From the NCBI GenBank assembly GCA_038869895.1, contig JAWCQE010000001.1:121879-185878 (forward strand): 64,000 nt of DNA, given 5' to 3'. This DNA comes from Candidatus Pacearchaeota archaeon. Its GTDB lineage: Archaea > Nanobdellota > Nanobdellia > Pacearchaeales > GW2011-AR1. Positions 1-40,010 of this stretch are shown here, in pieces. The first letter of the stretch is position 1, and each line of letters begins with the position of its first letter. A model generated the notes under the pieces. It searched no databases, was not told the origin of the DNA, and saw nothing but the letters and a program-made list of their open reading frames with translations. Position numbers and translations under genes: made by a program.

Positions 1-330
1 CGAAGGGTTCTTTGGCAATTGAGTAATGGCATGAGAGCTGGAAGTGATATTAGTGTTGTTGTAAAAGAAGAGATAAAAAATCTTGGAGAGGAACAGGCAA
101 TACAGATACAAAGTTATGGAGGTAAATTAAATCCTTTGGTTATGTTTTTTATGATTATCGCAGTAATTCTTCCGACTCTGGGAACAACATTCTTAATAAT
201 AATTGCTTCAATTATTGGCATTTCCGGAAATATGGTGAAATTAATGTTTATATCAATATTCATTTTTATATTGTTTGTCCAAATAATGTTTCTTGGACTA
301 ATTAAATCTAGGAGGCCAAGCTTAATATGA
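1..330 (+). CDS. T2SSF-domain membrane protein, 5'-partial (TadB/TadC/FlaJ-like)
   Basis: The frame is open from base 1, so the gene continues upstream of the window. The C-terminal hydrophobic helices resemble the end of a type II secretion system F (T2SSF) domain. It overlaps the next T2SSF-domain gene by 4 nt (ATGA). Confidence 0.45.
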   Translation, partial: RRVLWQLSNGMRAGSDISVVVKEEIKNLGEEQAIQIQSYGGKLNPLVMFFMIIAVILPTLGTTFLIIIASIIGISGNMVKLMFISIFIFILFVQIMFLGLIKSRRPSLI

Positions 331-1341: not shown

Positions 1342-2127
1342 ATGAAATTAAGAAAAAAGAGAAGTAATTCTAAGGTAAAAATTGGTAAGAAATTAAATAA
1401 AAAAAAGCAAAGTGAAAAAAATAAAAAAATAGATGAAAAATTAAAGAGAGTGTCAAGTGGGATTAAAAAATTTGACAAAATGACTTCTGGAGGTTTTGAA
1501 GAGAATTCAACGAATCTTGTTATTGGAGGAGATGGAAGCGGGAAAACCATCTTTGCCATGAGTTTTTTAATAGAAGGGATAAAAAGAGGAGAAAATGTCC
1601 TATATATAAATTTTGAGGAATCAAAGGAAAATTTTTTTAGAAATATGTTAGGACTTGGATGGGATTTAAGCAAGTTTGAAAGTTCTGGGAGATTCACTTT
1701 TCTTGAATATTCTCCTGAAAAAATAAAAATGATGATTGATGAAGGTGGAGGGGTTGTTGAGGAGATAATATTAAAAAATAAAATAAAAAGACTCGTAATT
1801 GATAGCTTGACAAGTTTTTTGATTTTATTTCCTTCAAAGCAACTTAAAAGACAAGCTATTTCATCTTTGTTTAATCTTATAGAAAAATGGGATTGTACAA
1901 GCATTTTGACTTTGCAGGAATTTTCAGAAGAAATTAAGAACAAAAGAGATTCTGAAGCAGAAAGCCAGGCAGATAGTATAATTCTTCTCTATCTTATAAA
2001 GGTAAAAAATGAAAGAAAAAGATTTATTGAAGTCTTAAAGATGAGGGGAACAAGACATTCAACAGGAACTTATGAATTCAAAATTAAAAAAGGAATTGAA
2101 ATAGGAAATAAGAAAATAATAAAATAA
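1342..2127 (+). CDS. KaiC/RecA-superfamily ATPase (FlaH/KaiC-like)
   Basis: Walker A motif GGDGSGKT sits in a KaiC-like context (FDKMTSGGF...LVIGG.GSGKTIFAMSF). Walker B-like LVIDSLT follows. It is co-oriented with the T2SSF genes. Confidence 0.7.
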   Translation: MKLRKKRSNSKVKIGKKLNKKKQSEKNKKIDEKLKRVSSGIKKFDKMTSGGFEENSTNLVIGGDGSGKTIFAMSFLIEGIKRGENVLYINFEESKENFFRNMLGLGWDLSKFESSGRFTFLEYSPEKIKMMIDEGGGVVEEIILKNKIKRLVIDSLTSFLILFPSKQLKRQAISSLFNLIEKWDCTSILTLQEFSEEIKNKRDSEAESQADSIILLYLIKVKNERKRFIEVLKMRGTRHSTGTYEFKIKKGIEIGNKKIIK

Positions 2128-2137
2128 TTAAACGTAA

Positions 2138-2569
2138 TTAAACTGCATCAACTAGGTTTCCAGTCGATGTTAAATTAAGGGCACTTCCTTGCTTTTTGTA
2201 TGTTATCTTTATGTCTCCTTGGAATTTTTGTCCTGCAGTTAGCGTGCATGGAACAGTAAATGTTGTTAAATTTCCATTATTTATGTCTTGTGGAAGAGTT
2301 GGACTTACAGTTCCTGTACATCCTGCAACAGTTATATCTGTTATAGACAATTGTTCTCCAGCTCCATGTATTAATTCTAATTGTATACCAGACGTTTCGG
2401 CAACCCCATTACATGAAAAAGGGGGGCTAAGACTACATCTATTTGGTACATAAGTTTTTGGATTGAAAACTCCAAAAAATGCAAGAGCTGCAATGACTAT
2501 AACTGCTGCTAAAATAGCCCAGCCATACGTCATCAAAAATTCCATCGCGGCCTGTCCTCTTTTTTTCAT
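2138..2569 (-). CDS. Archaeal type IV pilin (class III signal peptide), probable major pilin
   Basis: N-terminus MKKRGQAAMEFLMTYGWAILAAVIVIAALAFF matches a prepilin-peptidase site followed by a hydrophobic helix. A strong SD (GGAGGT) precedes the ATG. The gene has its own 257-bp upstream region. Confidence 0.75.
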   Translation of the reverse strand: MKKRGQAAMEFLMTYGWAILAAVIVIAALAFFGVFNPKTYVPNRCSLSPPFSCNGVAETSGIQLELIHGAGEQLSITDITVAGCTGTVSPTLPQDINNGNLTTFTVPCTLTAGQKFQGDIKITYKKQGSALNLTSTGNLVDAV

Positions 2570-2826
2570 AAGTAACCTCCTTTGTATTAAGATAATAAAA
2601 TTATGTTAAATTCGTTTATAAACATTTCTGTTAGTTGACTCTTTTATTATTAGTTAGTAGAAGATAATAAAGAGAGAAACCTTTGTCTTTTTTATAAAAG
2701 TTAATAGTGTAAAAACTGCTAATTTTTTGAATTTTACTTTTTCAAATCTTTATTAATACTTTTATTCTTTCAAATTAATCTTTGATAGATTTTTTTAATT
2801 GACAATATCCTTTTGAAATTATTGTT

Positions 2827-3744
2827 TTAAGAGGCTGTTGCGTTGTAAATTTCTAAATGTCCTGAATCGAGCTTAAACCATGATGGCATTCCTTGTATTT
2901 GATGTGGTTGTGGATTGAGTGATGAAAAGTATATATAGTCGACGATAGATTTTTGCTTTACTTGAATCCCTTGATTTTCTAATTTTGGTAAATATACAAG
3001 AGATTCAATCCCATATTGGTTTGGAGTAATTTTTCCTTCTATTCTGTCAAGAAAACTCGGAGATAAATTCGAGGAGATATAATATGAATTTTTAGTATGT
3101 TCAATAAGTACCGAGGTATTGTTGCTTGGAAAGGCATCGTATATTGTTTTATTTATTTTATTTGAAATCTTTCCATTAGTATTTATAAAATATATTGGAT
3201 CTTCAAATCCTTCAATTGGGATTGTTGCAGTTATATTTTGGATTTTATTCCATCTTGCAAGATTAGATTTATCCTCCATAATAAAATTTGAAATGAAGGT
3301 GATTTTGACATTCCAAGGGTCACTTTGGTATACATAAATTGAAGAATTTGACATGTTAATTATAACATTAATTTTTCCAGCCTTCTCATTTATTGAGTCA
3401 ATTAAATCTCTATATCTTGCCCCAAGTAAGATGTCATTCTCTTCACCATTAACCGTTCCATTAAAAAAAGATTCATTAAAAAAATAATTTATGTCATTGA
3501 TGTAATTGCCAGATTTTATTATCTCATCTTCAGCAATGAAAATTATTCTAAATCCAGAAATAAAAATCTGTCTTTCAAGATTTAATTCAATAGAATTAAG
3601 AAAATTTTCCATTGTTGAGATTCTTGTCGCAGTTGAGTACCTTTGTTGAGATATTGAAAATACTTCAAATGTAATAAAAATAAGTATAATTAAAAATATT
3701 GCTATTAAAGTCATTACTTGTGCTTTTTTATTTTTTATTTTCAT
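2827..3744 (-). CDS. Pilin-like protein (class III signal peptide-like N-terminus)
   Basis: N-terminus MKIKNKKAQVMTLIAIFLIILIFITF matches the KKAQ-plus-hydrophobic pattern. It sits in the same minus-strand pilin operon. Confidence 0.5.
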   Translation of the reverse strand: MKIKNKKAQVMTLIAIFLIILIFITFEVFSISQQRYSTATRISTMENFLNSIELNLERQIFISGFRIIFIAEDEIIKSGNYINDINYFFNESFFNGTVNGEENDILLGARYRDLIDSINEKAGKINVIINMSNSSIYVYQSDPWNVKITFISNFIMEDKSNLARWNKIQNITATIPIEGFEDPIYFINTNGKISNKINKTIYDAFPSNNTSVLIEHTKNSYYISSNLSPSFLDRIEGKITPNQYGIESLVYLPKLENQGIQVKQKSIVDYIYFSSLNPQPHQIQGMPSWFKLDSGHLEIYNATAS

Positions 3745-3745
3745 T

Positions 3746-6208
3746 TTATCTCCAAACTCTTACTTGTACTTCTGTATCCCATGTGAAAGGTATGCCTTGT
3801 ATTTCCGAAGTGGTTAATGAAATGTCATTCTCTGTAAATTTAGTTTCAATTTTATTGTTTGAATTTAAATCAAGGTTTGTTAGAAGTCTATAAATTGCGA
3901 GATTTATTGCATCATTATTATTATATGCTATTGAATGAGAAGTATAGGAGCATTCATTTTGGCCAGAGTAGTTTGACGGAACTAATATTGTTGAATTCTC
4001 TCCATTTTCAAATTCAATATTCCATGCACATCCTTCGGCACTTGCTACTATTGGGGAGAATGATAACATTTTTTTGACTACTCTGTAAATTATTTTATTG
4101 TGTTCAGAACCCCCTGTTGAATTGTTTGGATTTAGCGCTGTTGATATTCTTATTTTATTTTCTCCGCTTAATATTTTTTCTGAAGGAATATTGACTGCAA
4201 ATGGATCTCCTAAAAATATATATGGAAGATTAAATTTTGACAAGTCGAAAATTTCTTCCCAGATACTTAAATTATAATTGTAAATTTGGACTTTATCTGT
4301 CCATTTTGAGCCAGAATATGAGATTGCAATAATTTCATATGGAGTTACATCTTCTGGAATAAATAATTCTCCTTCTGAAATTGTATTCCCGAACTCTTCA
4401 GTTTCGGCACTTATTATTAATCCATAAGGTGTTGAATCGCTATAATTTAGTTTAATGTATGAATCTGGATAGAGTGTTGATTTTATATTTTCAGAAATAA
4501 TTGTCTGCTCAAAATAAAGTGAATTTAGGATATCTTCCGCTATTTCAGAATATACAGATATTAATTCTTCAATATTTGAATGATAATAATTACCATTCCC
4601 ACATGATGCCATTGATTGAAGTGTTGTTTCATCCGCATTATCTCCAAAACCAACTGTATGTATTGTAATATTATGGTTATTGTATGCTTCACAAGCTGCT
4701 CTTATTGCATCTGCTGTAGCGCTGTTACTTCCAGGATAACATGTTCCTTGCATATTTCCGTCAGTCATTACAATCATAAATTTTTTTCTTGATTGCATTG
4801 ACTGAGCGACGAAACTTCCTGTGGCATTTATTACCCCACAACATACACAATTTCCAGCTTTTGTAGTCCATGAATTTATTGTATTATTTAATGAAATTAT
4901 GTTATTTGAAAGAGGATGATAATTGTTTGGATTTACTCCGCTGTTGTATCCAACTAAACCAACTCTATTTAAATCTAATTCTAAAACTATCTCTATAAGT
5001 CTTCTATTGGCATTTCTTGCTAAATCTATCATTTTTATTCCAAGAGAAGGAATATTACTATTCATGCTTGAGGATAAATCAGTCACTGAAAAAATATCCG
5101 CCCCTATATTTTGAGTTATTTGATAAGAAACATTTTCAAGTCCGAGCCTCAAAGGGATTGTTTTTCTGCTTAATTTTGAATAATCAAACATTTGTGTTAA
5201 ATTTGAATTTGGTATGATAATCTCAAAATCCCTCCCTCCGCTATTTCCATTATAAATTGTTATATTTCCAATTGTCATAAAAATATTTTGTGAACTATTG
5301 TAATGCAGAAAAATTTCCATTGATGTAAGATTTCCTAAAATGTAAAAGCTATCATAAATATTAATTAGTCCATCTATTCCCGGTAAATTTTTTTTTGATT
5401 CAAGTGTAGTAAGTTCTTCTTCATTATAAATTATCTTAACAAATCCCCCTCCGATGAATAAATTTCCGTTTTTCCCAACAAAAGTTAATTTATTTTTTTC
5501 GTTGTTAACTTGTGATAGATTTCCGAGTATGACGAATTTGTAAATTTCATTTGATTGAATATCGTGTTCTCCTACAAACTGGTTATTTATATATAAATAA
5601 AAGTCTTCAGAGAATATAGCTTCAACATATATACTCTCTATTTTACCATCACTTTCGAGAGTTATATTGCCATCACCAACATAACCCCCAAAATAAATAT
5701 ATTTTACTTTACTTGAAGATGATAAAAAGGCTCTTGAAGAATATCCTTTAACAGATTCTCCTTGTTTTATCCCAGATATTATTTGACGAGATGTCCAAAC
5801 ATCTTCTGCTTCTGATATTTCTTTTGATGAATTTTCTGCAATTAAAACATTACTAAAATAAATGGCTATATTATCATTTAAATTTATTTCATTTAAAATC
5901 TCTTGAGTCATAAGTGTTGCTTCAGGTTTTGACAACGCATAAAATTCTCCAATTTGTTCGAGAACTGATTGATTCAAATCTTTTATTTTTCCTTCAGAGA
6001 TTAATTGATTCACATAATCATTATCAATTTTTCCTATTTCAAGAGATGAAAGAGAATTTAATAAATCTTGTTGGACATATTTTTGTGTTATTTTTTGGTT
6101 GGTAGGAGGAGTTACACTTAGAATCACGATAATTATAATTATTAGGGCTATAAGTGCATCTAAACTAAAATAATATCCTTTCTTCCCATTTATAAGGTTA
6201 AATTTCAT
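3746..6208 (-). CDS. Large pilin-like protein with von Willebrand factor A (vWA) domain, putative pilus tip adhesin
   Basis: N-terminal GKKGYYFSLDALIALIIIIIVIL looks like a class III signal. The internal vWA domain shows a MIDAS DxSxS motif (FSVTDLSSSM), then MIVMTDG and TVGFG downstream. Confidence 0.65.
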   Translation of the reverse strand: MKFNLINGKKGYYFSLDALIALIIIIIVILSVTPPTNQKITQKYVQQDLLNSLSSLEIGKIDNDYVNQLISEGKIKDLNQSVLEQIGEFYALSKPEATLMTQEILNEINLNDNIAIYFSNVLIAENSSKEISEAEDVWTSRQIISGIKQGESVKGYSSRAFLSSSSKVKYIYFGGYVGDGNITLESDGKIESIYVEAIFSEDFYLYINNQFVGEHDIQSNEIYKFVILGNLSQVNNEKNKLTFVGKNGNLFIGGGFVKIIYNEEELTTLESKKNLPGIDGLINIYDSFYILGNLTSMEIFLHYNSSQNIFMTIGNITIYNGNSGGRDFEIIIPNSNLTQMFDYSKLSRKTIPLRLGLENVSYQITQNIGADIFSVTDLSSSMNSNIPSLGIKMIDLARNANRRLIEIVLELDLNRVGLVGYNSGVNPNNYHPLSNNIISLNNTINSWTTKAGNCVCCGVINATGSFVAQSMQSRKKFMIVMTDGNMQGTCYPGSNSATADAIRAACEAYNNHNITIHTVGFGDNADETTLQSMASCGNGNYYHSNIEELISVYSEIAEDILNSLYFEQTIISENIKSTLYPDSYIKLNYSDSTPYGLIISAETEEFGNTISEGELFIPEDVTPYEIIAISYSGSKWTDKVQIYNYNLSIWEEIFDLSKFNLPYIFLGDPFAVNIPSEKILSGENKIRISTALNPNNSTGGSEHNKIIYRVVKKMLSFSPIVASAEGCAWNIEFENGENSTILVPSNYSGQNECSYTSHSIAYNNNDAINLAIYRLLTNLDLNSNNKIETKFTENDISLTTSEIQGIPFTWDTEVQVRVWR

Positions 6209-6672
6209 TTCCAGACATAAAGATTAAATTTAATTAGTTTATTTTTATAGACGCTGATTCTTTCTATTTTTATTAAATTCTCAATTTTGGTTGAATTTAT
6301 TCTTCCAATATATTCTTTTTGAGTTCCATTGATTTCAAGATTGTCTATTGTAAAATAGAAATCGTCTTTGACTCCAAGACGTCTCTTTAGTAATTCATAA
6401 TTTGAATTGTAGAAGTTTTCTAATTTAGTTTGATTTATTATATTATCTGATAGAATTCCGCTTTCATCATTATTTAATATCAATTCTGAAGCAGTTCTTC
6501 CTTGATTAAGTAAGTCGTCAAGTTGATTCCCTGCTTGATTTGCATAGTTGATTGTAAATATAAAAAGCATGATTATGCCAGATGTAAATATAATCATTGC
6601 AATAATTATATCCAGACTCCATGCCTGTGCTTTCTTTTTATTTCCTTTATTGATTAAGATAAACTTCACCAT
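6205..6672 (-). CDS. Pilin-like protein
   Basis: N-terminal KKKAQAWSLDIIIAMIIFTSGIIMLFIF resembles a class III signal. It overlaps the neighbouring pilin-like genes, as expected in an operon. Confidence 0.5.
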   Translation of the reverse strand: MVKFILINKGNKKKAQAWSLDIIIAMIIFTSGIIMLFIFTINYANQAGNQLDDLLNQGRTASELILNNDESGILSDNIINQTKLENFYNSNYELLKRRLGVKDDFYFTIDNLEINGTQKEYIGRINSTKIENLIKIERISVYKNKLIKFNLYVWK

Positions 6673-7036
6673 TTTCTTTCTTTATAATATTTTCTCCTTT
6701 TAGTATCTCTCCGTTTACAGGAACAATATTATAAAGAACTCCAGTATCTTCAGTATACACATATATGCTGTTGTTTACAATTTTTACTTCATAGTTTTTT
6801 CCAATTATAGTTTGAGGGAGATTAAATTTTCGGGAATAACCATTTGATGATTTTGATGCAAGAGCTATTTCCTCTCTGACATTAAGAGCTATATTTTGGA
6901 CAATTATGTTTTCTTTTTCTTTGTTCTTTTCATTTATATTTCCAGATATCACTCCAAGGAATAAAACAAAGAAGAAAAGTATAGCTCCAAAAATAACAAT
7001 GAATTCTATAATCCCTTGTCCTCTTTTATTTTTCAT
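6647..7036 (-). CDS. Pilin-like protein (class III signal peptide)
   Basis: N-terminus MKNKRGQGIIEFIVIFGAILFFFVLFLGV matches the class III signal pattern. Confidence 0.6.
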   Translation of the reverse strand: MKNKRGQGIIEFIVIFGAILFFFVLFLGVISGNINEKNKEKENIIVQNIALNVREEIALASKSSNGYSRKFNLPQTIIGKNYEVKIVNNSIYVYTEDTGVLYNIVPVNGEILKGENIIKKENGEVYLNQ

Positions 7037-7090
7037 TTAATATATTAAGATAACAGTTGATATGATTATATAAAAATTGCCTTAATAGAA

Positions 7091-8221
7091 TTACTTTAGT
7101 CCAAGATTAGCGAGAAGTTCTTCTTTTGAAAATTTTTCTAAATTTTTGTAATCTTGCCCTGTCCCTAGGAATAAGATTGGTTTTCCAGTTATATACCCTA
7201 TTGAGATTGCAGTTCCCCCTTTTTCATCTATGTCTGCTTTGGTTAAAATAGAACCATTAATTTCAAATAATTCATTGAATGATTTTGCCTGTTCAACAGC
7301 ATCATTACCTGTTATTGACTCAGCTATAAAAAGTTTTATATCAGGTTTGCAGACTCTTATTATCTTCTCCATCTCTTTCATTAGATTACTCTTAGTGTGC
7401 ATTCTTCCTGCAGTATCTATCATAACCACTTTTATCCCGTGTGATTTTGCATAAGAAATTGCGTCAAATGCAACTGCTGCTGGATCAGAACCATACTCAT
7501 GACTTATAACTTTAATCCCGAGGTTGTCACCATGCTTTTTTAGTTGTTCTATTGATGCTGCTCTGAAAGTATCTGAAGCTGCAAACACACACGAGATTTT
7601 GTGTTCATTGAGATAATATGCAAGTTTTGAAATAGTTGTTGTTTTGCCACTTCCGTTTATCCCAAAAAATAAAATAACAAAAGGGCCTTCTTTTTTCTCT
7701 CTTATTTTTTCAATAATATCAAATGGTTCTACAAGAATTCTTTTTATAGATTCTTTCAAAGAATTTTTGATTTCACTTTCAATTTCAGATTTTTTAATTT
7801 CAATATTCACAATATCCTTTTCCATATCTTCTTTTATTTTATCAACAACATTTAATGCTACATTATTCTCCAATAAAAGTGATTCCAATTCTTCAAAGAA
7901 TTCATCAAATATTTCCTTTGTTAAGCGCGATGTTGTAAATCTTCTTTTAATTCTTTCAAAAAATCCTTGTTCTTTTTCTAATTCAGGCTCTCCGATTTTT
8001 TCTTCAACTTGTTCTATTGAGTGTTCAAGTTTAATTGCGTTATCTTCTTTTAGTTTCTCTAAATCCTTTTTTTGTTTTTCAACACCTTCATATTTTTTTT
8101 CAGGTTCCTTTTCAATTTTTTCTTTTTTCTTGTCTTTTTCGTACTCTTCAGATTTTTCATCTTCTTTTTTTCCAAAGAATTTTGAAAGCTTTTCCTTTAA
8201 TGATTTGAACATTTTCTTCAA
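7091..8221 (-). CDS. ftsY: Signal recognition particle receptor FtsY
   Basis: SRP-GTPase NG domain motifs are present: GINGSGKTTTISKLA, DTAGR, TKAD. The N-terminus is an acidic K/E-rich region. Confidence 0.9.
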   Translation of the reverse strand: MKKMFKSLKEKLSKFFGKKEDEKSEEYEKDKKKEKIEKEPEKKYEGVEKQKKDLEKLKEDNAIKLEHSIEQVEEKIGEPELEKEQGFFERIKRRFTTSRLTKEIFDEFFEELESLLLENNVALNVVDKIKEDMEKDIVNIEIKKSEIESEIKNSLKESIKRILVEPFDIIEKIREKKEGPFVILFFGINGSGKTTTISKLAYYLNEHKISCVFAASDTFRAASIEQLKKHGDNLGIKVISHEYGSDPAAVAFDAISYAKSHGIKVVMIDTAGRMHTKSNLMKEMEKIIRVCKPDIKLFIAESITGNDAVEQAKSFNELFEINGSILTKADIDEKGGTAISIGYITGKPILFLGTGQDYKNLEKFSKEELLANLGLK

Positions 8222-12979: not shown

Positions 12980-13155
12980 ATAATAAAGAGATATTAGATT
13001 TTGTAAAAAGTAAAAAGATAGTTACAAGTTCAGAAGTTGCGAAAAAATTTAATATTTCATGGAATACTGCAGATAAATATCTTCTTGAACTCGCATTTAA
13101 TGATAAAATCGAAAGAATTAAAAAAGAAGGGGTGAATTTATGGATTTTAAAATAA
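12958..13155 (+). CDS. Small winged-helix DNA-binding protein (putative transcriptional regulator)
   Basis: 65 aa. The pattern (ILDFVKSKKIVTSSEVAKKFNISWNTADKYLLELAFNDKIERI) is typical of wHTH proteins of the MarR/ArsR/TrmB-N type. The true start may be the ATG at 12970. Confidence 0.55.
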   Translation: MLNNMNINNKEILDFVKSKKIVTSSEVAKKFNISWNTADKYLLELAFNDKIERIKKEGVNLWILK

Positions 13156-13970
13156 AAAGTCAGATAAGTAAAAAATCAGCTTGCAAGAAAGGACAGGTGA
13201 CAATTTTTGTTATTATCTCTCTTCTTCTTGTTGTTGCAATAATCCTATTATTTATCCTTTACAAAAATCAGCAGATTCCTGGAGTAAGAGTCGAAAAAAC
13301 TTCTGGCGAGGAACTCGAGTCTTGTATTAAATCTTATCTTGAAGAAGCAGTCGATTTAATTTTTGAAAATTCTGGGTATATTGAACTGCCGGAATTAACT
13401 TATCAAATAAGAAATATTTATGGATATTACAAACAAGAAAATGAAAAGAAAATCCCTTATTTGTGTTATACTGCAATTAATTATGTAAGATGCATTCCGC
13501 AAGAGCCTTTTTTTGTAAACCATATAGAAGATGAAATAAAAAATTTCATAATTCCAAAAGTTGAGATATGTTTTGAGAATTTAAGGAATAGATTGCAAGA
13601 AAGAAATTATGAAACAATGTTTGGTATAACAAAAAATTTAGATGTTGAATTAAATGAAAGAGGAGTCCAAATTTATATTGAAAAAGAAATTTCGCAAACA
13701 AAAGCAGAGAAAGAAGAACGTTTTAGCGAATTTAAGTCTAATTATAAGACAAGATTGTATGATGTAGCAAAAATATCTGAAAAAATTATCACAGAGGAGG
13801 TTAAATTTTGCAATTCTGATTATGTTGAAGTGATGAGAAATAATAAATTAATTGAAATAACAAAATTTCAGACAGGAGATGATGTTAAAGTTTATTCTGT
13901 TAAGGATTTACCTTCAAAGAAAGAATTTAAATTTGCTGTAAGGAACTGTGTCCTTGCAACTCCATCTTAA
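13140..13970 (+). CDS. Pilin-like protein (class III signal peptide-like), cassette copy 1
   Basis: N-terminal KKGQVTIFVIISLLLVVAIILLFIL. It is a paralog of 17913..18734 (shared LCYT and KFAVRN/NFAVRS blocks). Confidence 0.55.
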   Translation: MDFKIKSQISKKSACKKGQVTIFVIISLLLVVAIILLFILYKNQQIPGVRVEKTSGEELESCIKSYLEEAVDLIFENSGYIELPELTYQIRNIYGYYKQENEKKIPYLCYTAINYVRCIPQEPFFVNHIEDEIKNFIIPKVEICFENLRNRLQERNYETMFGITKNLDVELNERGVQIYIEKEISQTKAEKEERFSEFKSNYKTRLYDVAKISEKIITEEVKFCNSDYVEVMRNNKLIEITKFQTGDDVKVYSVKDLPSKKEFKFAVRNCVLATPS

Positions 13971-13971
13971 A

Positions 13972-16900
13972 ATGAATAAAAAGTTTATCGCAGGAATTGA
14001 AATTTTTCTTGTCATAAGCATGGCTGTTTCATTTTCATGGATTCTAGGAAATATTTATGGGACTTCTCCAGATATAAAAAGTTTATTAGAATTTATAACA
14101 ATAATTCCAAGTGTTTCTGCCCAAACAACTACATCATGTTGTCTTAATTTGAAAAGCGGAGCCAGTTGTACTGACATTCCATCTGATTCATGTTCTGATA
14201 TTTGTGATGGAAATTGTGTTTCAGGGACAACATGTTCTCAACTAAGGGAATGCAATCTTGGATGTGGATTTAATTCTGATGAAGGAACATGCACTCCAAA
14301 TACTCCAAGGGTACTATGTGAAGGAGATGAGGGCTGTGAATTTCTTGATGACCCTTTTTGCAACAATCAAAAATGTGAAATTGGATGTTGTGTTCTTGGA
14401 TTGAGTGCGAATTTGGAGACGAGAACTGGATGTGAAATACAATCTTTAAGAAGAGGAGTATCATTTGAATTTGACAGTTCAATAAAAGATGGCGTTCAAT
14501 GTTTGAATAAGGGTAAAACAAGTGAGGGAGCTTGTGTTGTAAATTTTGGAGAAGAAAAAAATAACTGCATTTTTACAACACAAAGTGAGTGTGTCAACAA
14601 TATAAAAGGAGTTTTTTATGAAGGCTATCTTTGTTCTCATCCAGAACTTAAAACAATATGTGTGAAGCAGTCAAGAGTAAGTTGTTTTGACAATAGGGAT
14701 GAGGTATATTGGTATGATTCATGTGGGAATAGAGAAAATATTTATTCATCAAATAGGGCAAGTTCATGGAATAATGGATTCGTCTTATCGAAAGAGAAAT
14801 CATGCAATCCTAATTCTTCAAATGAAAATTCAGGAAGCTGTGGAAATTGTAATTATAATCTTGGAAGTATATGCGGAGAGTTTAGGCCTGGAGTTGATTC
14901 TGGAAATATGGAAGGTTATACTTGTAGAAATTTAAACTGCATTGATTCAAAAGGAAAACAAAGAACAAACGGAGAATCATGGTGTGTTTATGATGGAACT
15001 ATAGGCGGAGGAAGTATACTTGAAGGGAAGAGTGGGGGATTATTATCAAAAATAGCTGGAGGATTATTGGAGGGAGAGGTTGCATTATTAAGCACTGATT
15101 TAGTAGGGAGCAGACATTTTAGGCAGGTATGTGTTAATGGAAAAGTAGAGGTAGAACCATGCGCTGATTATAGGAAGGAGATATGTGTCCAGAATGATAA
15201 ATCCCTTGATAATGGAAGAAAGATTGATAATGCAATATGTAGGATGAATTTATGGGAACAATGTATTTCATACAATCAAGGAAATGAGGGATGTGGGCCA
15301 GGATGTTTAACCAAATGTGTGAAAAATCCAGATTGTAGGATTCATCCTGTTTTTGTTGACTCTCGTTTTAAATTTAATGCTTGTGTCCCAAAATATCCTC
15401 CTGGATTTGATTTAGGAAGTACAAGCGGAGTAGATAGTTTTGTAAGAAATTATGTATCAAGTTCTATTAGTGATTTGGATGGAGGTGGGGTTCTTTCAAA
15501 ATTATCAGGAAGTTTAAGTTCTGAGAATTCTGCAGGAAGCATTTGTTCTTTAGCATCGCAAAAATGCACTAGTATATGGACTAAGACATGCGGACTATCA
15601 GGAATTCATTGGGAATGCACGAAAAACTGCAAATGCCATACTGAATCTTTTACAATTCAGATGAATAATCTTTGTGTTTCTCTTGGAGATTGTGGAGTTT
15701 ATGCAAATTATGAAGGAAAGGTTACTCCTGGTGGAGCTTATGTAACAAAGAAAGGAGGACATGGAAGGACCCCTCTACAACCATTTATTTTGATTCCAGT
15801 TTATGCTGTTTTAGTTAAAATATTAAAACCAACTCCTCCAAGTGGTGGATTTTTTCGAGATGAGAAAGACATAGTGAATTTTCCAACTGAAATTATTGAT
15901 CCATTCTTAGGAGGGTATAATAGAATAGATGTAGGGAAACTGCCAAGTCAGTTGGATAATATGCTTGGAAGCCAGTTAGGAACAACTATCGGAGCAGGAG
16001 TTGCTGGAGGACTTGTAGGAGGGGTAGTTGCAGGACTAGGAGGAGTTACAGCTGCAGGTCTTGGAGTTATTGGGGCTGCTACACAAGGAATATTATGGGC
16101 ACCAATTATTTTTCCAACAGGGGGGGTGGGTATGTTACAAATACCAGTTACTTTTTATGCTCCCACTAACAATATCCTTTCAACTGTATTTCACGGACAT
16201 TATTTAGGTAAACCATTTTTCGGATTTGATCCTTTATCAATTGCAATTGGAATCGCAGTTGGAATCGCGATTACTTATCTTATTGGATGTGGAAAAGTTA
16301 AGACAGTTGATATCAAATTTCAGTGTTTACCTTGGCAAAGGCCAAAAGGCGGGACTGATTGTGAGAAATGTGATGATGACCCTTTGAAACCATGTTCAAG
16401 GTATAGGTGTGAATCTCTTGGAGCAAGATGCACTTTGATAAATGAAGGAAAAGGAGATGTATGCGTAAGTGTTTCTGGGGAAAGTTCTATACCAGTAATT
16501 AGTCCATGGGAAGAGATACTCAATACCTCTTTTTATAGGTATGAAGACATAAGTCCTAATGGATTTAAAATAAGAACAAAAGATGGACAGTGTATACAGG
16601 CATTTACTTATTTAGTTTTTGGAGTTGAAACAGATGTTTATTCGGAGTGTTTCTGGAGTTTAGAACCATTTGCATATGAAAATAAATCAGAGGCAAATTT
16701 ATTTTTAGAAGGAAATCTTTTAACTAAAAATCATACAATGCTAACTTTATTGCCAAGTGTTGAAAGTTTATTGGCTAATGAAATTAATAACCAAGAAGAA
16801 TTGGGACAGGCATTGGAAACAACAACAGAACAGGACATCAGCGCCAGGCAATACATATTAAATCGATTAGGAGATTTAAATATCTATGTAAAATGCGCAA

Positions 16901-17898
16901 ACCTTGATGGAAAAGCCAACGACCAGGATTATAAAATAAACTTCTGTGTGTCTCCTGGGCCAGATATACAAGAACCGGTAATAATTGCGTCTTCTCCTCC
17001 GCAGAACAACTTCACAAAATTTGATGCAACAGAACAAGAAGCTTTCTTTTTTATTTCAGAACCAGCTGAATGTAGATGGGATAGTACGAGGCAAGTTATA
17101 TCAAATGAATTAGAATCATATAATTCATTGAGAAATGAAATGGAATGTAGTGTTGATTTAGATGAAAGTACAATACTTGGATGGCCGTGCAATGCAACTC
17201 TTCCAATAACAGGCGAGGAAAATAGATTTTTTATTCAATGTCGAGACCAGCCGTGGCTTGGAAATAATAACTCAAGAAACATAGGAGACATTTTTGAATA
17301 TTCGTTAAAAAGAAGTAATTCTGAATTAAAAATAACTTCTATTAAACCTAATGAAAAAGTCTTTGCAGGAAGTGAACCTATTATGATTGAATTGGAAGTT
17401 GAGACATCAGGAGGAGTTGAAAATGGAAACGCTTTCTGCAAATATAGTTTTGACAATAATCAATTTGTAAATTTCAGAATTACAGGCGAGAAAGTTCATA
17501 GCCAAATTCTAAATCAGATGAGAAAAGGAGATTATAAAGTTTATATTCAGTGTAATGATTTTGCAGGAAATGTTGCAGAAGGCATTGGGGAGTTCTCATT
17601 AGAACTTGATACTAAAGCCCCTGTTATAACAAGAGTTTTTAGTAATGCTAACACTTTATTCATTACAACAGATGAAGAGGCAAAGTGTTTTTATAAGAAT
17701 GAATCTGATGTAGGATGTAATTTTCCGTTAAATAATGTTACTGAATTTAATATTACTGAATTTACAAAGAATGGAAATATTCACTCAACTCCTTTAATAA
17801 AAGGAAAGAGTTACTATATAAAATGCGAAGATATTTGGAGCAATAGAGCTGAGAGTTGTTCTATTGTTGTAAGGAGTTTTGAAAATTTTGCAAGTTAA
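13972..17898 (+). CDS. Giant cysteine-rich extracytoplasmic/membrane protein (1308 aa), cassette copy 1 (fused form)
   Basis: Signal peptide cleaved before AQTTTSCC. An extensive Cys-rich N-half follows, then a Gly-rich hydrophobic segment (GAGVAGGLVGGVVAGLGGVTAAGLGVIGAA). After it comes a CLPWQRPKGGTDCEKCDDD...PCSRYRCESLG motif and repeated Ig-like modules (NFCVSPGPD, DTKAPVITRV). Start refined to the in-frame ATG at 13972. Confidence 0.7.
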   Translation: MNKKFIAGIEIFLVISMAVSFSWILGNIYGTSPDIKSLLEFITIIPSVSAQTTTSCCLNLKSGASCTDIPSDSCSDICDGNCVSGTTCSQLRECNLGCGFNSDEGTCTPNTPRVLCEGDEGCEFLDDPFCNNQKCEIGCCVLGLSANLETRTGCEIQSLRRGVSFEFDSSIKDGVQCLNKGKTSEGACVVNFGEEKNNCIFTTQSECVNNIKGVFYEGYLCSHPELKTICVKQSRVSCFDNRDEVYWYDSCGNRENIYSSNRASSWNNGFVLSKEKSCNPNSSNENSGSCGNCNYNLGSICGEFRPGVDSGNMEGYTCRNLNCIDSKGKQRTNGESWCVYDGTIGGGSILEGKSGGLLSKIAGGLLEGEVALLSTDLVGSRHFRQVCVNGKVEVEPCADYRKEICVQNDKSLDNGRKIDNAICRMNLWEQCISYNQGNEGCGPGCLTKCVKNPDCRIHPVFVDSRFKFNACVPKYPPGFDLGSTSGVDSFVRNYVSSSISDLDGGGVLSKLSGSLSSENSAGSICSLASQKCTSIWTKTCGLSGIHWECTKNCKCHTESFTIQMNNLCVSLGDCGVYANYEGKVTPGGAYVTKKGGHGRTPLQPFILIPVYAVLVKILKPTPPSGGFFRDEKDIVNFPTEIIDPFLGGYNRIDVGKLPSQLDNMLGSQLGTTIGAGVAGGLVGGVVAGLGGVTAAGLGVIGAATQGILWAPIIFPTGGVGMLQIPVTFYAPTNNILSTVFHGHYLGKPFFGFDPLSIAIGIAVGIAITYLIGCGKVKTVDIKFQCLPWQRPKGGTDCEKCDDDPLKPCSRYRCESLGARCTLINEGKGDVCVSVSGESSIPVISPWEEILNTSFYRYEDISPNGFKIRTKDGQCIQAFTYLVFGVETDVYSECFWSLEPFAYENKSEANLFLEGNLLTKNHTMLTLLPSVESLLANEINNQEELGQALETTTEQDISARQYILNRLGDLNIYVKCANLDGKANDQDYKINFCVSPGPDIQEPVIIASSPPQNNFTKFDATEQEAFFFISEPAECRWDSTRQVISNELESYNSLRNEMECSVDLDESTILGWPCNATLPITGEENRFFIQCRDQPWLGNNNSRNIGDIFEYSLKRSNSELKITSIKPNEKVFAGSEPIMIELEVETSGGVENGNAFCKYSFDNNQFVNFRITGEKVHSQILNQMRKGDYKVYIQCNDFAGNVAEGIGEFSLELDTKAPVITRVFSNANTLFITTDEEAKCFYKNESDVGCNFPLNNVTEFNITEFTKNGNIHSTPLIKGKSYYIKCEDIWSNRAESCSIVVRSFENFAS

Positions 17899-17912
17899 AT
17901 TTATAAAGAAAT

Positions 17913-18734
17913 TTGTTTTTAGAAGGTAATAGAATGATTAAATCAAAAAACAAAAGAGGACAGACAACAATCTTTGTTATCTTAGCAGTAGTTATTGTTG
18001 CAGTCATAGTGATTTTTTTTGCAGTTACGGATATAGGGAGAGAAACTTTTGAAAAAATCTCTAATATTGTTGGCAGTGATGAGATTAATGTTAAAGAAGA
18101 ATTGAATAAATGTTTTATTGATAACAGCGAAATCAATAAAAAAATAAATCTAATTATGTCACAGGGAGGAAGTATTGAACCTTCTTTATTTTTTCTTCAT
18201 AATGGAACGAAATTAAGTTATTTATGTTATACTAATGAATTTTATAAGACATGTGTAAATCAGCAGCCTTTAATATTACAACATACAAAGAATGAGATAA
18301 ATAGGGCAATTCTTCCAGAAATAGATAAATGTATTTCTTCATTAAAAGCCAATTTTGAAAAAAGAGGATATCAAATAAGAGGACAGAATTTCGAGAGTTC
18401 AATAGATATAATTCACAACAACATAATTATTAAAATAAATTTCCCTCTAACTATCAAAAAGGGGGATTTAACACAGACATTTGAAAATTTTGAAATAAAA
18501 AAACATAGCCAGTATTATCAATTATTAAGTGTTGCAACATCAATTGTAAATTTTGAATCCCAATATGGCGATAGTGATCCAGTTTTATATATGTCTCTTT
18601 ATCCGAATACAAGAGTTGAAAAATTAAAACAAGGAGATGGGACAACAATTTATAAGATTAGTGATAGGGAAACAATGGAAACTTTTAACTTTGCTGTAAG
18701 AAGTTTGGCTTTGCCTATAGGATATGGATTATAA
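17913..18734 (+). CDS. Pilin-like protein (class III signal peptide), cassette copy 2
   Basis: N-terminal MIKSKNKRGQTTIFVILAVVIVAVIVIFFAV. Paralog of 13140..13970. Confidence 0.55.
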   Translation: MFLEGNRMIKSKNKRGQTTIFVILAVVIVAVIVIFFAVTDIGRETFEKISNIVGSDEINVKEELNKCFIDNSEINKKINLIMSQGGSIEPSLFFLHNGTKLSYLCYTNEFYKTCVNQQPLILQHTKNEINRAILPEIDKCISSLKANFEKRGYQIRGQNFESSIDIIHNNIIIKINFPLTIKKGDLTQTFENFEIKKHSQYYQLLSVATSIVNFESQYGDSDPVLYMSLYPNTRVEKLKQGDGTTIYKISDRETMETFNFAVRSLALPIGYGL

Positions 18735-18750
18735 ATTCAAATAGTTAAAA

Positions 18751-20607
18751 ATGGTGATTGAAAAAAAAGAAGAAAAATTGAAGAGAAAATTTACAAGTAA
18801 TTACTTTTTAGGTTTTAGTCTGTTTATTTTTTTTATTTTATTTTTTTCATCTTATGTCACGGCGCAGACAACGACAGTATGCTGTGAAAAAACTTTAAAT
18901 GGAGCTTACTGCCAGAATTCCATTCAAAGCCAGTGTGATTCAAGATTTTTAAGTTCACAAACAAGCTGTGATGCGACTTCTTTCTGTCAATTAGGAGTTT
19001 GTTATGATAGTGATGATGGATTATGTATGAATAATGTTCCTCAAAGGGCATGTGAAGAAGCAAACGGATTGTGGACAAGTGATGCAAATCCTCCCCAATG
19101 CAATTTAGGATGTTGTATTCTTGGGCAGCAGGCTTCTTTTACAACTCTTCAAAGATGTAAGAAATTATCTGGAACTTACGGACTTCAAGTGGATTTCAGA
19201 ACAGACATCAAAGACGAAGTTTCTTGTATTGCAGTTGCAAATGCACAAGACATTGGAGCTTGTGTTTTTGAGTCAGAATTTACAAGAACCTGTAAATTTG
19301 TTACAAGAGCTGAATGTGGCACTTCAATGAACTCAACAAATTCAGGAGTAGTTCCTAATACGCAATTTTTCAAGGATTTTTTATGTACTTCAGAACAGCT
19401 TAATACAAACTGCCAGAGAACCTCAAAAACTTCTTGTTTTGAAGGAGAGGATGAAGTTTATTTTATTGATAGCTGTGGGAATAAGGCTAATATTTATGAT
19501 GCTTCAAGAATAAATGATAAAAATTATTGGGAAAAAAGAGTTCCTAAAAGTCAGAGCTGCACTGCCTCTAGGAATTCTAGAAGTTGTGGAAACTGCGATT
19601 ATCTTGAAGGAAGTATTTGTTCTAAAGCTAAAGATTCTGGTGTTAAGCCAGCTTATGGCGAATTTATCTGTAGGGATATAAATTGTTATAGTACTTCAAA
19701 TGGAAAAAATTACAAAAATGGGGAGTCATGGTGTTTTTACGACAATAATAATAAAGGGGATGATAGGGTTGGAAGTAGACATTTTAGGCATATTTGTTTT
19801 ATGGGAGAGGAAATTGTAGAACCATGCGCTGATTATAGGCAAGAAACATGCATTGAAGATTCGATAAATGTTGAGGGCGGTGGAACTTTTCTACAAGCAG
19901 GATGTGTTGTGAATAGGTGGCATGATTGTTTGTTGCAGAAAAGAATTGAAGATTGCCAAAATACTGATTTAAGAGATTGTAAATGGATTCCGGTTTCTGA
20001 AGAACCTGAAGAGATAGCAAAAGGGATAATTGATGCATCTTTAAATAAAATTACAAATGGATTTTCTGGATTATTAATGAATGTTATTGAAAAAGATGAA
20101 AGAGATAAAGGGGCTTGTGTTCCAGATATTGCTCCAGGACTTGAATTTTGGGGGGAGTCGGCGGCATCTCAGTGTGACTTAGTAAGTTCAAGTTGTGTTA
20201 TAACTTATGAAAAGACGTTAATTGGAGGAAAAAAGTGTGTTAAGAATTGCTTTTGTGATATAAAAGAAAACCCACAAACAGCAATTCAGGCATTGAATAT
20301 ATGTTCCTCTATAGGAGACTGCGGACCAGGAGCAAATTATATAGGAAAATTTGTTAATAATGGTTATGAACTAAGAATAGATGACAAAAAAATAGGTCCT
20401 GAACTTAATTTAGGAATTTTTACTGCTTCTCCTGTTCAAAGTGGAAGTCCTGCAAATCCCTCTACAAATCCCTCTTTTGAACAAAGAAGAGAATTTTCAA
20501 CAGCAACACAACAGACATTTCAAACTCAAACCTCAACTGCAACTTCAACAACAGGAAATATTATCAAAGATATAATAACTGAAACATATAAACAACTTGG
20601 AAAATAA
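18751..20607 (+). CDS. Cysteine-rich secreted protein, paralog of the N-terminal half of the giant protein
   Basis: Signal peptide ending ...YVTAQTTTVCC. Cys spacing and blocks align with the 1316-aa protein (CNLGCC, SCGNCxYxLGSIC, EPCADYR). Confidence 0.65.
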   Translation: MVIEKKEEKLKRKFTSNYFLGFSLFIFFILFFSSYVTAQTTTVCCEKTLNGAYCQNSIQSQCDSRFLSSQTSCDATSFCQLGVCYDSDDGLCMNNVPQRACEEANGLWTSDANPPQCNLGCCILGQQASFTTLQRCKKLSGTYGLQVDFRTDIKDEVSCIAVANAQDIGACVFESEFTRTCKFVTRAECGTSMNSTNSGVVPNTQFFKDFLCTSEQLNTNCQRTSKTSCFEGEDEVYFIDSCGNKANIYDASRINDKNYWEKRVPKSQSCTASRNSRSCGNCDYLEGSICSKAKDSGVKPAYGEFICRDINCYSTSNGKNYKNGESWCFYDNNNKGDDRVGSRHFRHICFMGEEIVEPCADYRQETCIEDSINVEGGGTFLQAGCVVNRWHDCLLQKRIEDCQNTDLRDCKWIPVSEEPEEIAKGIIDASLNKITNGFSGLLMNVIEKDERDKGACVPDIAPGLEFWGESAASQCDLVSSSCVITYEKTLIGGKKCVKNCFCDIKENPQTAIQALNICSSIGDCGPGANYIGKFVNNGYELRIDDKKIGPELNLGIFTASPVQSGSPANPSTNPSFEQRREFSTATQQTFQTQTSTATSTTGNIIKDIITETYKQLGK

Positions 20608-23838: not shown

Positions 23839-24969
23839 CTATTCTGTTCTAAAATGATGTTCTATATATTCAACCATCTCGCGAGCTGAAAGTTTAACAC
23901 TTGCTGGCCCATTTCTTATGTAAAATTCCTCTTCATTTTGAAATTTTACAAAAACAGGCTTTTTTGATTTTTGACATTCAATCTTTAGAACATGTTTATC
24001 ATCTACTGGAAAGAGTTCAAATTCAATAAAATGGAGATATTCATTTCCTATGTATTTTTTAAGAAGATTTGTGAAATGAAGATTTAGCGAATCATTATCT
24101 TTGAAATTATCCTTTTCCAATCCACATATTTTTCCATTGTCATTTACTCCTATTAATAATGTTCCTCCTTCTGTATTGAGAAAAGCAGAAATAGTTTTTA
24201 TTGTAGAATATTCGATTTTGCTATCAATCTCATTTGTATGAAGATTTGTCCTTAATGTTGATTTAAATTCGAGATTTTTTGATTCTCCAACACTTATTAT
24301 TTTTTTTATTTCATCAGAAGATTCTTCCAAAGTATTTCTAATTCTAAAAAATCGCTTATATCTCTCAATTTGTTTTGAAACAAACTTAGAGATTATTTTT
24401 ATTTCTCCATTTTGTATATATGAATATCCGATTAGTGATATTATAAACGCCCCGAATGTGTTTGTTATAATGTCTTTCATTGTGTCAATATTGGACTTTT
24501 GCATTTTGAATCCAAAGAGATTGTCAATTGAAAATTCAATTATTTCCCATAATACCCCTACAGCAATTGTAAAACAGAAAGTCAGGAATGAAATAATCAA
24601 TGGATTTGCTTTTATTTTCCTATCCCTATACAGAGCATATAATATAATAAGTCCGACAATTCCAAGAACGCTTGCTGCAATAAGATTAAGGGCAATATCC
24701 CACCACCAAAACTCAGCAAAAAATCCTCTCACTTCACTTAGAAAAAGGATTCCATAAATTGATAGTATGATTATTATTTCATAAATCGCAGGAAAATTAA
24801 CTCCAAGCGTTTTCAATACTTTTGGAACAAATGTTGCAACAAATCCTATTAACGAAAAGACCATTACAAGATTTCTTCCATAATAAATTGAACTTATGAA
24901 GGCTAAAGCAAGGAGCCCTCTTATTAAATTAATCACCAAAAATTTAACTTTCTCTCTTTCCTCTCCCAT
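23839..24969 (-). CDS. Membrane protein with C-terminal AlbA_2/Schlafen-like (divergent AAA) domain
   Basis: ~6 TM helices in the N-terminal half. The C-terminal half (ESKNLEFKSTL...FLNTEGGTLLIGVNDNGKICGL) resembles the AlbA_2 putative nucleic-acid-binding domain. Confidence 0.45.
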   Translation of the reverse strand: MGEEREKVKFLVINLIRGLLALAFISSIYYGRNLVMVFSLIGFVATFVPKVLKTLGVNFPAIYEIIIILSIYGILFLSEVRGFFAEFWWWDIALNLIAASVLGIVGLIILYALYRDRKIKANPLIISFLTFCFTIAVGVLWEIIEFSIDNLFGFKMQKSNIDTMKDIITNTFGAFIISLIGYSYIQNGEIKIISKFVSKQIERYKRFFRIRNTLEESSDEIKKIISVGESKNLEFKSTLRTNLHTNEIDSKIEYSTIKTISAFLNTEGGTLLIGVNDNGKICGLEKDNFKDNDSLNLHFTNLLKKYIGNEYLHFIEFELFPVDDKHVLKIECQKSKKPVFVKFQNEEEFYIRNGPASVKLSAREMVEYIEHHFRTE

Positions 24970-25159: not shown

Positions 25160-25648
25160 ATGAAAAGAGGACAATTTCAACTTGGATTTGGAATGATTTT
25201 CTCTATTATATTGATAATTGCATTTATAATTGTTGCATTTATTGCTTTCAAAGCTTTTTTTGGAGTGAGGTGTTCTACTGAACAAGGAAGATTTATTTAT
25301 GAACTTCAGAATGAAATTGACAGGATATGGAAAGGCTCGGGCGAGGATAGGATTAAGGAATTTAAAATTTTAGGATGTGATTTTGATTATGTTTGTTTTT
25401 GGGATCCAAATGTTCCTTCAAGAGGAAATTTCAGAACTTTTGAAGACGATTTCAGTATTTTTACAGGAGATGAAGGAAACCATAATTTATATTTTTATCC
25501 AAGAAAAAAAGTAGAAATTTCTTCAACCTTGATAAAGCATATTAATATGGATTTTAGAGAGAATCCTGTATGTTTTAGAAACGAGGAGAATTCTGTTAAA
25601 ATAAGACTCAGCAAAAACATTGACGAAGATTTAGTAAGAGTCTCATAA
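25160..25648 (+). CDS. Pilin-like protein (class III signal peptide)
   Basis: N-terminal MKRGQFQLGFGMIFSIILIIAFIIVAFIAF. Confidence 0.55.
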   Translation: MKRGQFQLGFGMIFSIILIIAFIIVAFIAFKAFFGVRCSTEQGRFIYELQNEIDRIWKGSGEDRIKEFKILGCDFDYVCFWDPNVPSRGNFRTFEDDFSIFTGDEGNHNLYFYPRKKVEISSTLIKHINMDFRENPVCFRNEENSVKIRLSKNIDEDLVRVS

Positions 25649-25649
25649 A

Positions 25650-37179: not shown

Positions 37180-40010
<2,831 letters not shown>

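Follow-up and report, generated by a model that had tools for sequence, protein, structure and literature searches.

The 64,000-nucleotide (nt) stretch of a Candidatus Pacearchaeota archaeon genome analyzed here (GenBank assembly GCA_038869895.1, contig JAWCQE010000001.1; hereafter the window) is archaeal DNA of ~28-30% GC in which five consecutive minus-strand open reading frames (ORFs) encode, in transcription order, proteins of 129, 155, 820, 305 and 143 residues (Table 1). The original prediction described them as a pilin operon whose 820-residue product joins a pilin-like N-terminus to a von Willebrand factor A (vWA) domain, and all five ORFs are found where it placed them. The first four genes are tightly packed: the 129- and 155-residue genes overlap by 26 nt, the 155- and 820-residue genes overlap by 4 nt, and a single nucleotide separates the 820- and 305-residue genes. 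These overlaps and near-contacts suggest translational coupling.

The 143-residue gene stands apart, and the long upstream region and strong ribosome-binding site claimed for it are both present. Its spacer contains a TATA-like element, TTTATAAA, ~50 nt upstream of the ATG, and a Shine-Dalgarno sequence, AAGGAGGT, with 6 nt between its end and the ATG; from its sequence, this spacer is a putative promoter. The shorter spacer that follows ftsY carries another TATA-like element, TTTTTATATAA, ~30 nt upstream of the 129-residue ATG, and is a possible promoter of the four-gene set, a candidate minor-pilin operon. Both elements were located by eye, as a sigma-70 promoter and terminator scan is uninformative for an archaeon.

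Table 1 Features of the pilin-like gene block and adjoining genes, with positions in the window
Feature	Position	Strand	Basis
First TadC/T2SSF-type platform gene, 3' part	1..330	+	tblastn with the 292-residue TadC of a related locus (L001), 72% identity over residues 184-292; weak Pfam T2SSF match
Second TadC/T2SSF-type platform protein, 320 residues	327..1289	+	Pfam PF00482 T2SSF, E 6e-16; weak ArlJ/FlaJ NCBIfam matches
KaiC-family (RecA-like) ATPase	1342..2127	+	Pfam PF06745, E 6e-54; in 49/85 loci
Candidate major pilin, 143 residues	2138..2569	-	ORF and homologue alignment
Spacer ahead of the 143-residue gene	2570..2826	-	257 nt, AT-rich; TATA-like box and strong Shine-Dalgarno, read from sequence
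305-residue pilin-like protein	2827..3744	-	ORF and homologue alignment
820-residue modular pilin-like vWA protein, candidate adhesin	3746..6208	-	Homologues and AlphaFold2 model
C-terminal beta-rich domains of the 820-residue protein, residues 566-820, conserved Cys pair C727/C753	3749..4513	-	DSSP of model and conservation
vWA domain, residues 367-565, with metal-ion-dependent adhesion site (MIDAS) residues D377, S379, S381, T453, D483	4514..5110	-	
Beta jelly-roll domain, residues 167-360, resembling carbohydrate-binding modules	5129..5710	-	
N-terminus of the 820-residue protein: leader, residues 1-11, with KKG at its end; hydrophobic helix, residues 12-33, starting YYFSLDALIAL	6110..6208	-	Translation
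155-residue pilin-like protein	6205..6672	-	ORF and homologue alignment
129-residue pilin-like protein	6647..7036	-	ORF and homologue alignment
Spacer after ftsY	7037..7090	-	54 nt; TATA-like box, read from sequence

Conserved class III-type N-termini

Each protein of the block begins with a short basic leader that ends in [KR][GA] and leads directly into ~20 hydrophobic residues. A FlaFind-style script, which requires that an 18-residue window of mean hydropathy >2 begin within a few residues after a [KRDE][GA] site, flagged 9 of the 71 window ORFs of at least 100 residues. Five of these nine make up the minus-strand block, all with hydropathy windows >2.4, and five flagged ORFs in a row at a background rate of ~6% are not a matter of chance. 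A basic and a small residue immediately before a hydrophobic segment, with an acidic residue inside it, is the pattern expected of class III signal peptides. By comparison, the predicted Sec signal of a 759-residue LamG protein from the same organism, MKKNLLLGITFVLVIIFATSVLA/F (here and below a slash marks the predicted cleavage site), is unlike the N-termini of the block.

The leader motifs are kept in all five families, as counted column by column in alignments of 40-98 homologues per family gathered from 85 related loci. The 143-residue protein (KRG/QAAMEFLMTYGWAIL, Glu at +5) has an almost invariant N-terminus, in which K-[KR]-G is followed by QAAMEFLMTYGWAIL and Q, A, A, E, F, L and M are each retained in at least 44 of 46 homologues. 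In the 129-residue protein (KRG/QGIIEF, Glu at +5), whose family reads [KR]-[AGS] and then Q-x-x-x-E-F, Q7 and E11 are invariant (40/40). In the 155-residue protein (KKA/QAWSLD, Asp at +6), with family motif [KR]-[AGS] and then Q-x-W-[GS]-x-D-L, Q16 and D21 are likewise invariant (40/40) and W18 is kept in 39/40. The 820-residue family has K-[KR]-[GA] before Y-F-F-S-x-D-A; among its 98 homologues, 86 have K9, 91 have K or R at position 10 (-2), 96 have G or A at position 11 (-1) and 97 have D17 (+6). The 305-residue protein (KKA/QVMT) lacks an acidic residue at +5 or +6, and the pattern conserved in its 46 homologues, K-[KR]-[GAS] and then x-F-F-T, has no acidic residue either. Class III signal-peptide-like N-termini, as first proposed for the five proteins, are thus flagged by the script in every case and conserved in every family.

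Profile libraries recognize these proteins unevenly. Hits to the Pfam family Class_IIIsignal (PF04021), mostly below the gathering score, occur in 10/40 members of the 129-residue family and 15/40 of its paralogue family, and DUF7266 matches 24/40 of the former. Pilin_N matches 4/46 members of the 143-residue family, whose profile gives weak hits (E 0.01-0.25) to the solved archaeal pilins 8q30, 8fk7 and 8fj5; this family is large (>6500 matches) and bears the JGI label ‘UPF0333 family’. No Pfam pilin or class III signal family matches the 820-, 305- or 155-residue families. No Pfam relative of the 305-residue protein was found, and a profile search of the Protein Data Bank (PDB) with its family was empty even at E = 1.

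Domain architecture of the 820-residue protein

At NCBI, the 820-residue protein has a 100% match in a Candidatus Pacearchaeota metagenome-assembled genome (MAG); the only names given to it in public databases are ‘VWA domain-containing protein’, as in this record, and ‘hypothetical’. More than 350 full-length homologues were found. Pfam detects PF00092 at residues 371-544 with 44 bits (cutoff 23.8) and PF13768 with 31.4 bits (cutoff 27), and a profile of 98 full-length homologues matches the PDB vWA proteins 4rck and Mfa5. In an AlphaFold2 model calculated from the same 98-homologue alignment (mean predicted local distance difference test, pLDDT, 88.2), a disordered leader is followed by a helix (residues 16-32), a helical region (45-108), beta structure (113-357), the alpha/beta vWA domain (370-565) and further beta domains (577-820). 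Both the predicted model and a fold search give the vWA domain a Rossmann-like alpha/beta fold. Its DxSxS motif, DLSSS, is encoded at nt 5066-5080, with MIVMTDG and TVGFG further downstream. Of the MIDAS residues, D377, S379, S381 and T453 are retained by 90% or more of the 98 homologues, and D483 is invariant. The vWA domain and the MIDAS strings noted earlier in the translation therefore hold in the profile, fold and conservation checks alike.

A Foldseek search of the PDB returned an inter-alpha-inhibitor heavy chain, the Streptococcus sanguinis minor pilin PilB (E 1e-10), BatB, LapA, SpaC and Mfa5. Several of the best structural matches (Mfa5, PilB, SpaC, PitA, RrgA and GBS104) are pilus-tip adhesins.

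Two features of the protein together point to an extracellular location. Eight Cys residues are conserved in at least 99% of the family, of which the vWA domain has six and the C-terminal domain two. In addition, N-X-S/T sequons occur at 2.2 per 100 residues in the 820-residue protein and at 3.3 in the 305-residue protein, the highest value in the window, compared with ~0.2-0.8 in clearly cytoplasmic window proteins and 1.2 in an S-layer-like protein.

A constant N-terminal region and a variable head

The N-terminal part of the 820-residue protein behaves as a unit. Residues 1-365 modeled alone reach a pLDDT of 86, with a drop in confidence for strands 137-162, which may pack against the C-terminal half that was removed from this model. 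When residues 1-365 were searched against 1.84 billion cluster representatives, 719 relatives were found, 275 of them at E <=1e-30; the match always starts at the N-terminus of the relative, and the relatives are ~820-2031 residues long. Longer members keep the vWA domain, split by LamG/pentraxin, CARDB, F5/8 type C (discoidin) or DUF2341 inserts. In 85 of the 98 full-length homologues, a Cys-rich insertion of up to 60 residues (consensus CxGxxxxCCxxxxxCxxxxxCxxCGG) directly follows the MIDAS loop. The window protein has no such insertion at the corresponding site (after residue 390), and we therefore regard it as a minimal form of the family. By analogy, a constant N-terminal carrier joined to a variable binding head is the design of bacterial modular pilins.

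Pattern scanning of GTDB species, each represented by a single genome, found 393 genomes that encode a relative of the vWA protein, and the best 80 of these 393 relatives all come from Pacearchaeota, Woesearchaeota or Nanoarchaeota MAGs. Some related loci encode tandem vWA-pilin paralogues (~820 and ~1170 residues) or a single long form with a LamG insert (L041, 9995-15980; L083, 6447-12691; L076, 9980-13330).

Linkage to type IV pilus assembly genes

ORF calling and phmmer searches over the 85 related loci, many of which are truncated, reveal a recurrent gene order, with variations: KaiC, TadC (~320 residues), TadC (~292 residues), T2SSE ATPase, p202, p158, p129, p155, vWA, p305 and pilin, where p155, for example, denotes the family of the 155-residue protein. 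The vWA gene was found in 83 loci, p305 in 80, p155 in 76, p129 in 72, p158 in 70, the ATPase in 58 and the pilin in 57. The tightest core is p155-vWA-p305, with p155 and vWA adjoining in 71/74 loci and vWA and p305 in 68/79, and the major pilin gene is often displaced or duplicated. The block is thus conserved beside type IV pilus (T4P) assembly genes in dozens of relatives. We think that the region is best explained as the pilin half of a T4P locus conserved in the Pacearchaeota, Woesearchaeota and Nanoarchaeota of the DPANN archaea.

In the window, the pilin block is inverted relative to the platform genes, and the left edge falls inside the first TadC gene (~292 residues in relatives). The whole gene is present in L086, another assembly of this organism, which matches the window at 100% identity across 1094 nt of overlap. 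Directly to the left of the window, L086 also encodes a 135-residue p158 homologue (MRKGG/QAGIEYL), p202 and a 459-residue ATPase, so that the system has six pilin-like genes rather than five. The sixth belongs to a family paralogous to p129 (hhalign probability 95%). The 320-residue TadC gene co-occurs with the vWA gene in 58/85 loci. The KaiC-family ATPase probably regulates or assists the pilus machine; such ATPases have been named as T4P-associated (PMC4858521). p202, which lies between the ATPase and the first minor-pilin gene in 57/85 loci (L086 6820-7458), combines an N-terminal transmembrane (TM) segment with a C-terminal winged-helix domain (TDLDxLYxLLKEKKxL...ALEWxKILE) and could be a membrane-tethered regulator or assembly factor. 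This architecture led us to reject p202 as a prepilin peptidase.

Genes for the GTPases of the signal recognition particle (SRP) pathway flank the pilus locus, with FtsY on the right (window 7091-8221, -) and SRP54 on the left (L086 3055-4431, -). Flanks differ in other relatives, and this bracketing may be coincidence. Some 5-7 kb to the left of the locus, L086 1-2604 encodes a longer T2SSE-type ATPase (746 residues) and the 759-residue secreted protein mentioned above, which has a Sec signal, fn3 and two LamG/pentraxin domains.

Relationship to known pili and vWA proteins

Modular pilins with vWA domains are known in bacteria. PilB of S. sanguinis (PDB 7b7p/7ba2), a type IV minor pilin made of two modules, one of which is, as in the 820-residue protein, a vWA domain, has a crystal structure and has been shown to be an adhesin (PMC8179133). 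PilB is bacterial, its leader is of the N-methyl type (IPR012902) and its pilin module is small and canonical, whereas the archaeal protein has a helical region and jelly-roll linker, extra C-terminal beta domains and archaeal machinery; there is no sequence homology between the two outside the vWA domain. The bacterial TadG/CpaL proteins are also minor-pilin-like, have a vWA domain with an inserted beta-rich region, are encoded with at least two small minor pilins and have been modeled at the pilus tip, and an origin from archaeal T4P has been proposed for Tad systems (PMC11870444). In this case only the architecture is similar: the domains follow another order, the insertions are not the same, TadG/CpaL belong to a bacterial tad locus rather than an archaeal one, and the 820-residue protein has no TadE/TadG-type N-terminal or Tad match in Pfam. 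CpaL also acts in surface sensing.

The original prediction likened the 820-residue protein to the tip adhesins PilY1/PilC. One part of this idea stands, namely a vWA domain on a pilin-like N-terminus, from which we infer a tip role, but the analogue itself does not. PilY1/PilC are also large pilus-associated adhesins, Pseudomonas aeruginosa PilY1 has a vWA domain and the family swaps N-terminal modules. However, PilY1 does not belong to the pilins. It carries a Sec signal and is defined by its C-terminal beta-propeller, the part that docks on minor pilins, and no Pfam match to the PilC/PilY1 beta-propeller was found in the 820-residue protein at E up to 0.1. The vWA tip adhesins of type V and sortase pili (Mfa5, SpaC, RrgA, GBS104 and PitA) all lack a class III signal and differ in being assembled by unrelated routes, through sortases or by strand exchange.

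Among archaeal systems, the loci resemble type IV filament ‘system 1’ and the Methanococcus maripaludis Epd pilus, which have two platform genes by the ATPase, many class III proteins with Q-x-S-x-E-[YF] (PF04021) and large predicted adhesins. In our set, the 292- and 320-residue TadC genes adjoin the ATPase in 58 loci and in L086, and one long relative of the vWA protein carries DUF2341, a domain flagged in Methanococcus adhesin candidates. By contrast, the Epd locus encodes its own peptidase, whereas none is linked in the loci studied here, and the Epd adhesin candidates are DUF2341 or galactose-binding proteins rather than vWA fusions (PMC4858521; preprint 10.64898/2026.04.22.720090). Neither of these papers mentions a vWA pilin. 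System 1 was reported in ‘a few DPANN archaea’ (preprint 10.64898/2026.04.22.720090). In line with what was first supposed, we found no description of a vWA pilin for archaeal pili; the archaeal T4P literature that could be searched features the vWA domain only in the cytoplasmic regulator ArnB, and our literature search on DPANN or Pacearchaeota pilins, adhesins and von Willebrand domains found nothing relevant. What appears to be new is a candidate vWA modular pilin in an archaeal (DPANN) pilus system, with a domain make-up of its own, whereas bacterial vWA modular pilins were already known. The finding overturns nothing established.

A model of a proposed adhesive pilus

We propose that the block encodes the subunit set of an adhesive type IV pilus, a reading to which we assign a probability of roughly 0.65. 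By analogy with bacterial modular pilins, the 820-residue protein is best read as a modular minor pilin that acts as the pilus-tip adhesin. Direct observations comprise the genes and the assembly genes linked to them, the conserved leader motifs, the vWA fold with its MIDAS site and the features that point outside the cell; from them we infer cleavage, polymerization, tip position and ligand binding of the pilin-like proteins as follows. Each of the six precursors would be cleaved after K-[KR]-[GA] by a class III (prepilin) peptidase whose gene would lie elsewhere. The 143-residue protein would build the filament, a role suggested by its own promoter-like spacer, strong ribosome-binding site and nearly invariant N-terminus. 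The 129-, 155-, 820- and 305-residue proteins, together with the 135-residue paralogue encoded apart from the four coupled genes, would form an initiation complex that ends up at the pilus tip.

Within this complex, the hydrophobic N-terminal helix of the 820-residue protein would insert into the filament core, and the helical region, jelly-roll, MIDAS-containing vWA domain and C-terminal beta domains would project outward. Ligand, probably on a host cell or surface, would be bound through the MIDAS metal site and neighboring lectin-like surfaces, and relatives would vary this head by means of the lectin-like modules inserted in the vWA domain. The tip subunit GspK of type II secretion systems (T2SSs) is generally described as lacking Glu5. 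By analogy, the outermost position could fall to the 305-residue protein, which has neither Glu nor Asp at +5/+6.

Several findings weigh against an adhesive pilus. No A24-type prepilin peptidase was found in the 64-kb window or in the flanks of the 85 loci, as judged by Pfam searches of the multi-TM ORFs of the window and by a scan for GxGD[VI]K-type motifs in all six frames of the window and all ORFs of the 85 loci. The multi-TM ORFs comprise a Schlafen/AlbA_2 membrane protein, a presenilin-type signal peptide peptidase (SPP), an M50 protease and one protein without a Pfam match. The seven-TM presenilin/SPP-type GxGD protein (54905-55873, -; PF06550, 54 bits), the only intramembrane aspartyl protease seen in the window, is not A24 by profile. 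Moreover, the predicted N-terminal helix of the 820-residue protein spans only 17 residues before a conserved Pro. Our literature search turned up no microscopic or proteomic evidence of pili on these archaea, and a groundwater study (preprint) reported that T4P components are missing in DPANN genomes, even as it inferred strong host attachment for Pacearchaeota.

No pilin-type globular domain was detected packed on the C-terminal half of the N-terminal helix of the 820-residue protein. This result and the peptidase gene not found nearby would be explained if the protein were a membrane-anchored surface adhesin or pilus-base anchor, with a signal anchor that is either uncleaved or cleaved but never polymerized, and with its vWA head at the cell surface. 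Membrane vWA proteins of the BatB type are among the top structural matches, and a TadG-as-anchor hypothesis is cited in PMC4858521. Nevertheless, we consider such an anchor unlikely, because K-[KR]-[GA] right before the hydrophobic segment and a near-invariant Asp inside it mark a class III signal rather than a generic anchor, because the vWA gene is sandwiched between pilin-like genes and overlaps them in most of the 85 loci, and because bacterial TadG has been reported in pilus fiber preparations. A different possibility is that the product of the locus is not an adhesive pilus but a short pseudopilus that serves secretion or the uptake of DNA or other substrates, like T2SS, Com or the Sulfolobus bindosome, with the vWA protein as a substrate-capturing or gating subunit. 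Six pilin-like genes, of which five appear to be minor, would suit such a machine, as in T2SS and Com. DPANN archaea rely on imported building blocks, and the lack of reported filaments in this lineage fits a pseudopilus as well. Yet the 143-residue family is abundant and sometimes duplicated, and its gene in the window has a strong Shine-Dalgarno sequence, as for a bulk filament subunit, the domains inserted in relatives are of lectin or adhesion types and the closest structural vWA relatives are adhesins, all of which make a pseudopilus improbable. Finally, the vWA fold and a tie to archaeal type IV filament biology are shared with ArnB, raising the idea of an ArnB-like regulator of pilus or archaellum expression. 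ArnB is cytoplasmic, is partnered by the FHA protein ArnA or a MoxR/GvpN ATPase and has no leader or helix, no disulfide-type Cys and no pilin neighbors. The 820-residue protein, by contrast, has a basic leader and hydrophobic helix, eight conserved Cys residues, many sequons and relatives with lectin-type insertions, and an FHA (ArnA) or MoxR partner occurs in none of the 85 loci. We reject this regulator, for which the remaining probability is close to nil.

Implications of a possible adhesive pilus in DPANN archaea

Pacearchaeota and Woesearchaeota are abundant, uncultivated and metabolically minimal archaea that are thought to be attached to hosts. If the block does encode an adhesive pilus, the locus offers a testable candidate for both the attachment organelle and the specificity determinant of episymbiotic DPANN archaea. 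A complete, syntenic pilus locus with a candidate adhesin, with relatives in at least 393 species-level genomes, also stands against the groundwater study's report of missing T4P components. More broadly, the modular pilin principle, in which a functional module rides on a pilin carrier as in PilB and CpaL/TadG, would extend from bacteria to archaea, and vWA domains would gain a second role in archaeal type IV filament biology beside that of ArnB. A more tentative proposal, on which we would not yet rely, is that modular pilins with vWA and lectin modules are the host-recognition device of Pacearchaeota and Woesearchaeota, in which the inserts (Cys-rich loop, LamG, CARDB, discoidin or DUF2341) set which host or surface is gripped. 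If so, attachment by type IV pili would be common among DPANN archaea but overlooked, and would parallel the pilus-driven episymbiosis of Saccharibacteria.

Other features of the window

Two further groups of genes in the window encode proteins with class III-like or pilin-like N-termini. In the first (13140-22692, +), proteins of 276 residues (KKG/QVTIFVI) and 273 residues (KRG/QTTIFVI) flank a 1316-residue protein with 72 Cys residues, and the group continues with proteins of 618 residues (43 Cys) and 694 residues (21 Cys); no member has a Pfam match above threshold. These could be additional surface or pilin-like proteins that share the pilus machinery. The second group (25160-27609, +), of four consecutive small genes, encodes proteins of 162, 316, 174 and 166 residues, which start MKRG/QFQLGF, MNKNG/FEFSF, KKA/QLKIK and KKS/QEEIVGF, and lies just upstream of the gene for the S-layer-like protein (28461-31115; Pfam S_layer_C). 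A complete archaeal 23S rRNA gene is present at 37181-40015 (-), with no 16S or 5S match within the 64-kb window, and the rRNA genes thus appear to be unlinked. The Schlafen/AlbA_2 membrane protein (23839-24969, -) combines five TM segments with a C-terminal Schlafen/AlbA_2 domain (PF04326, E 1e-23), an unusual combination.

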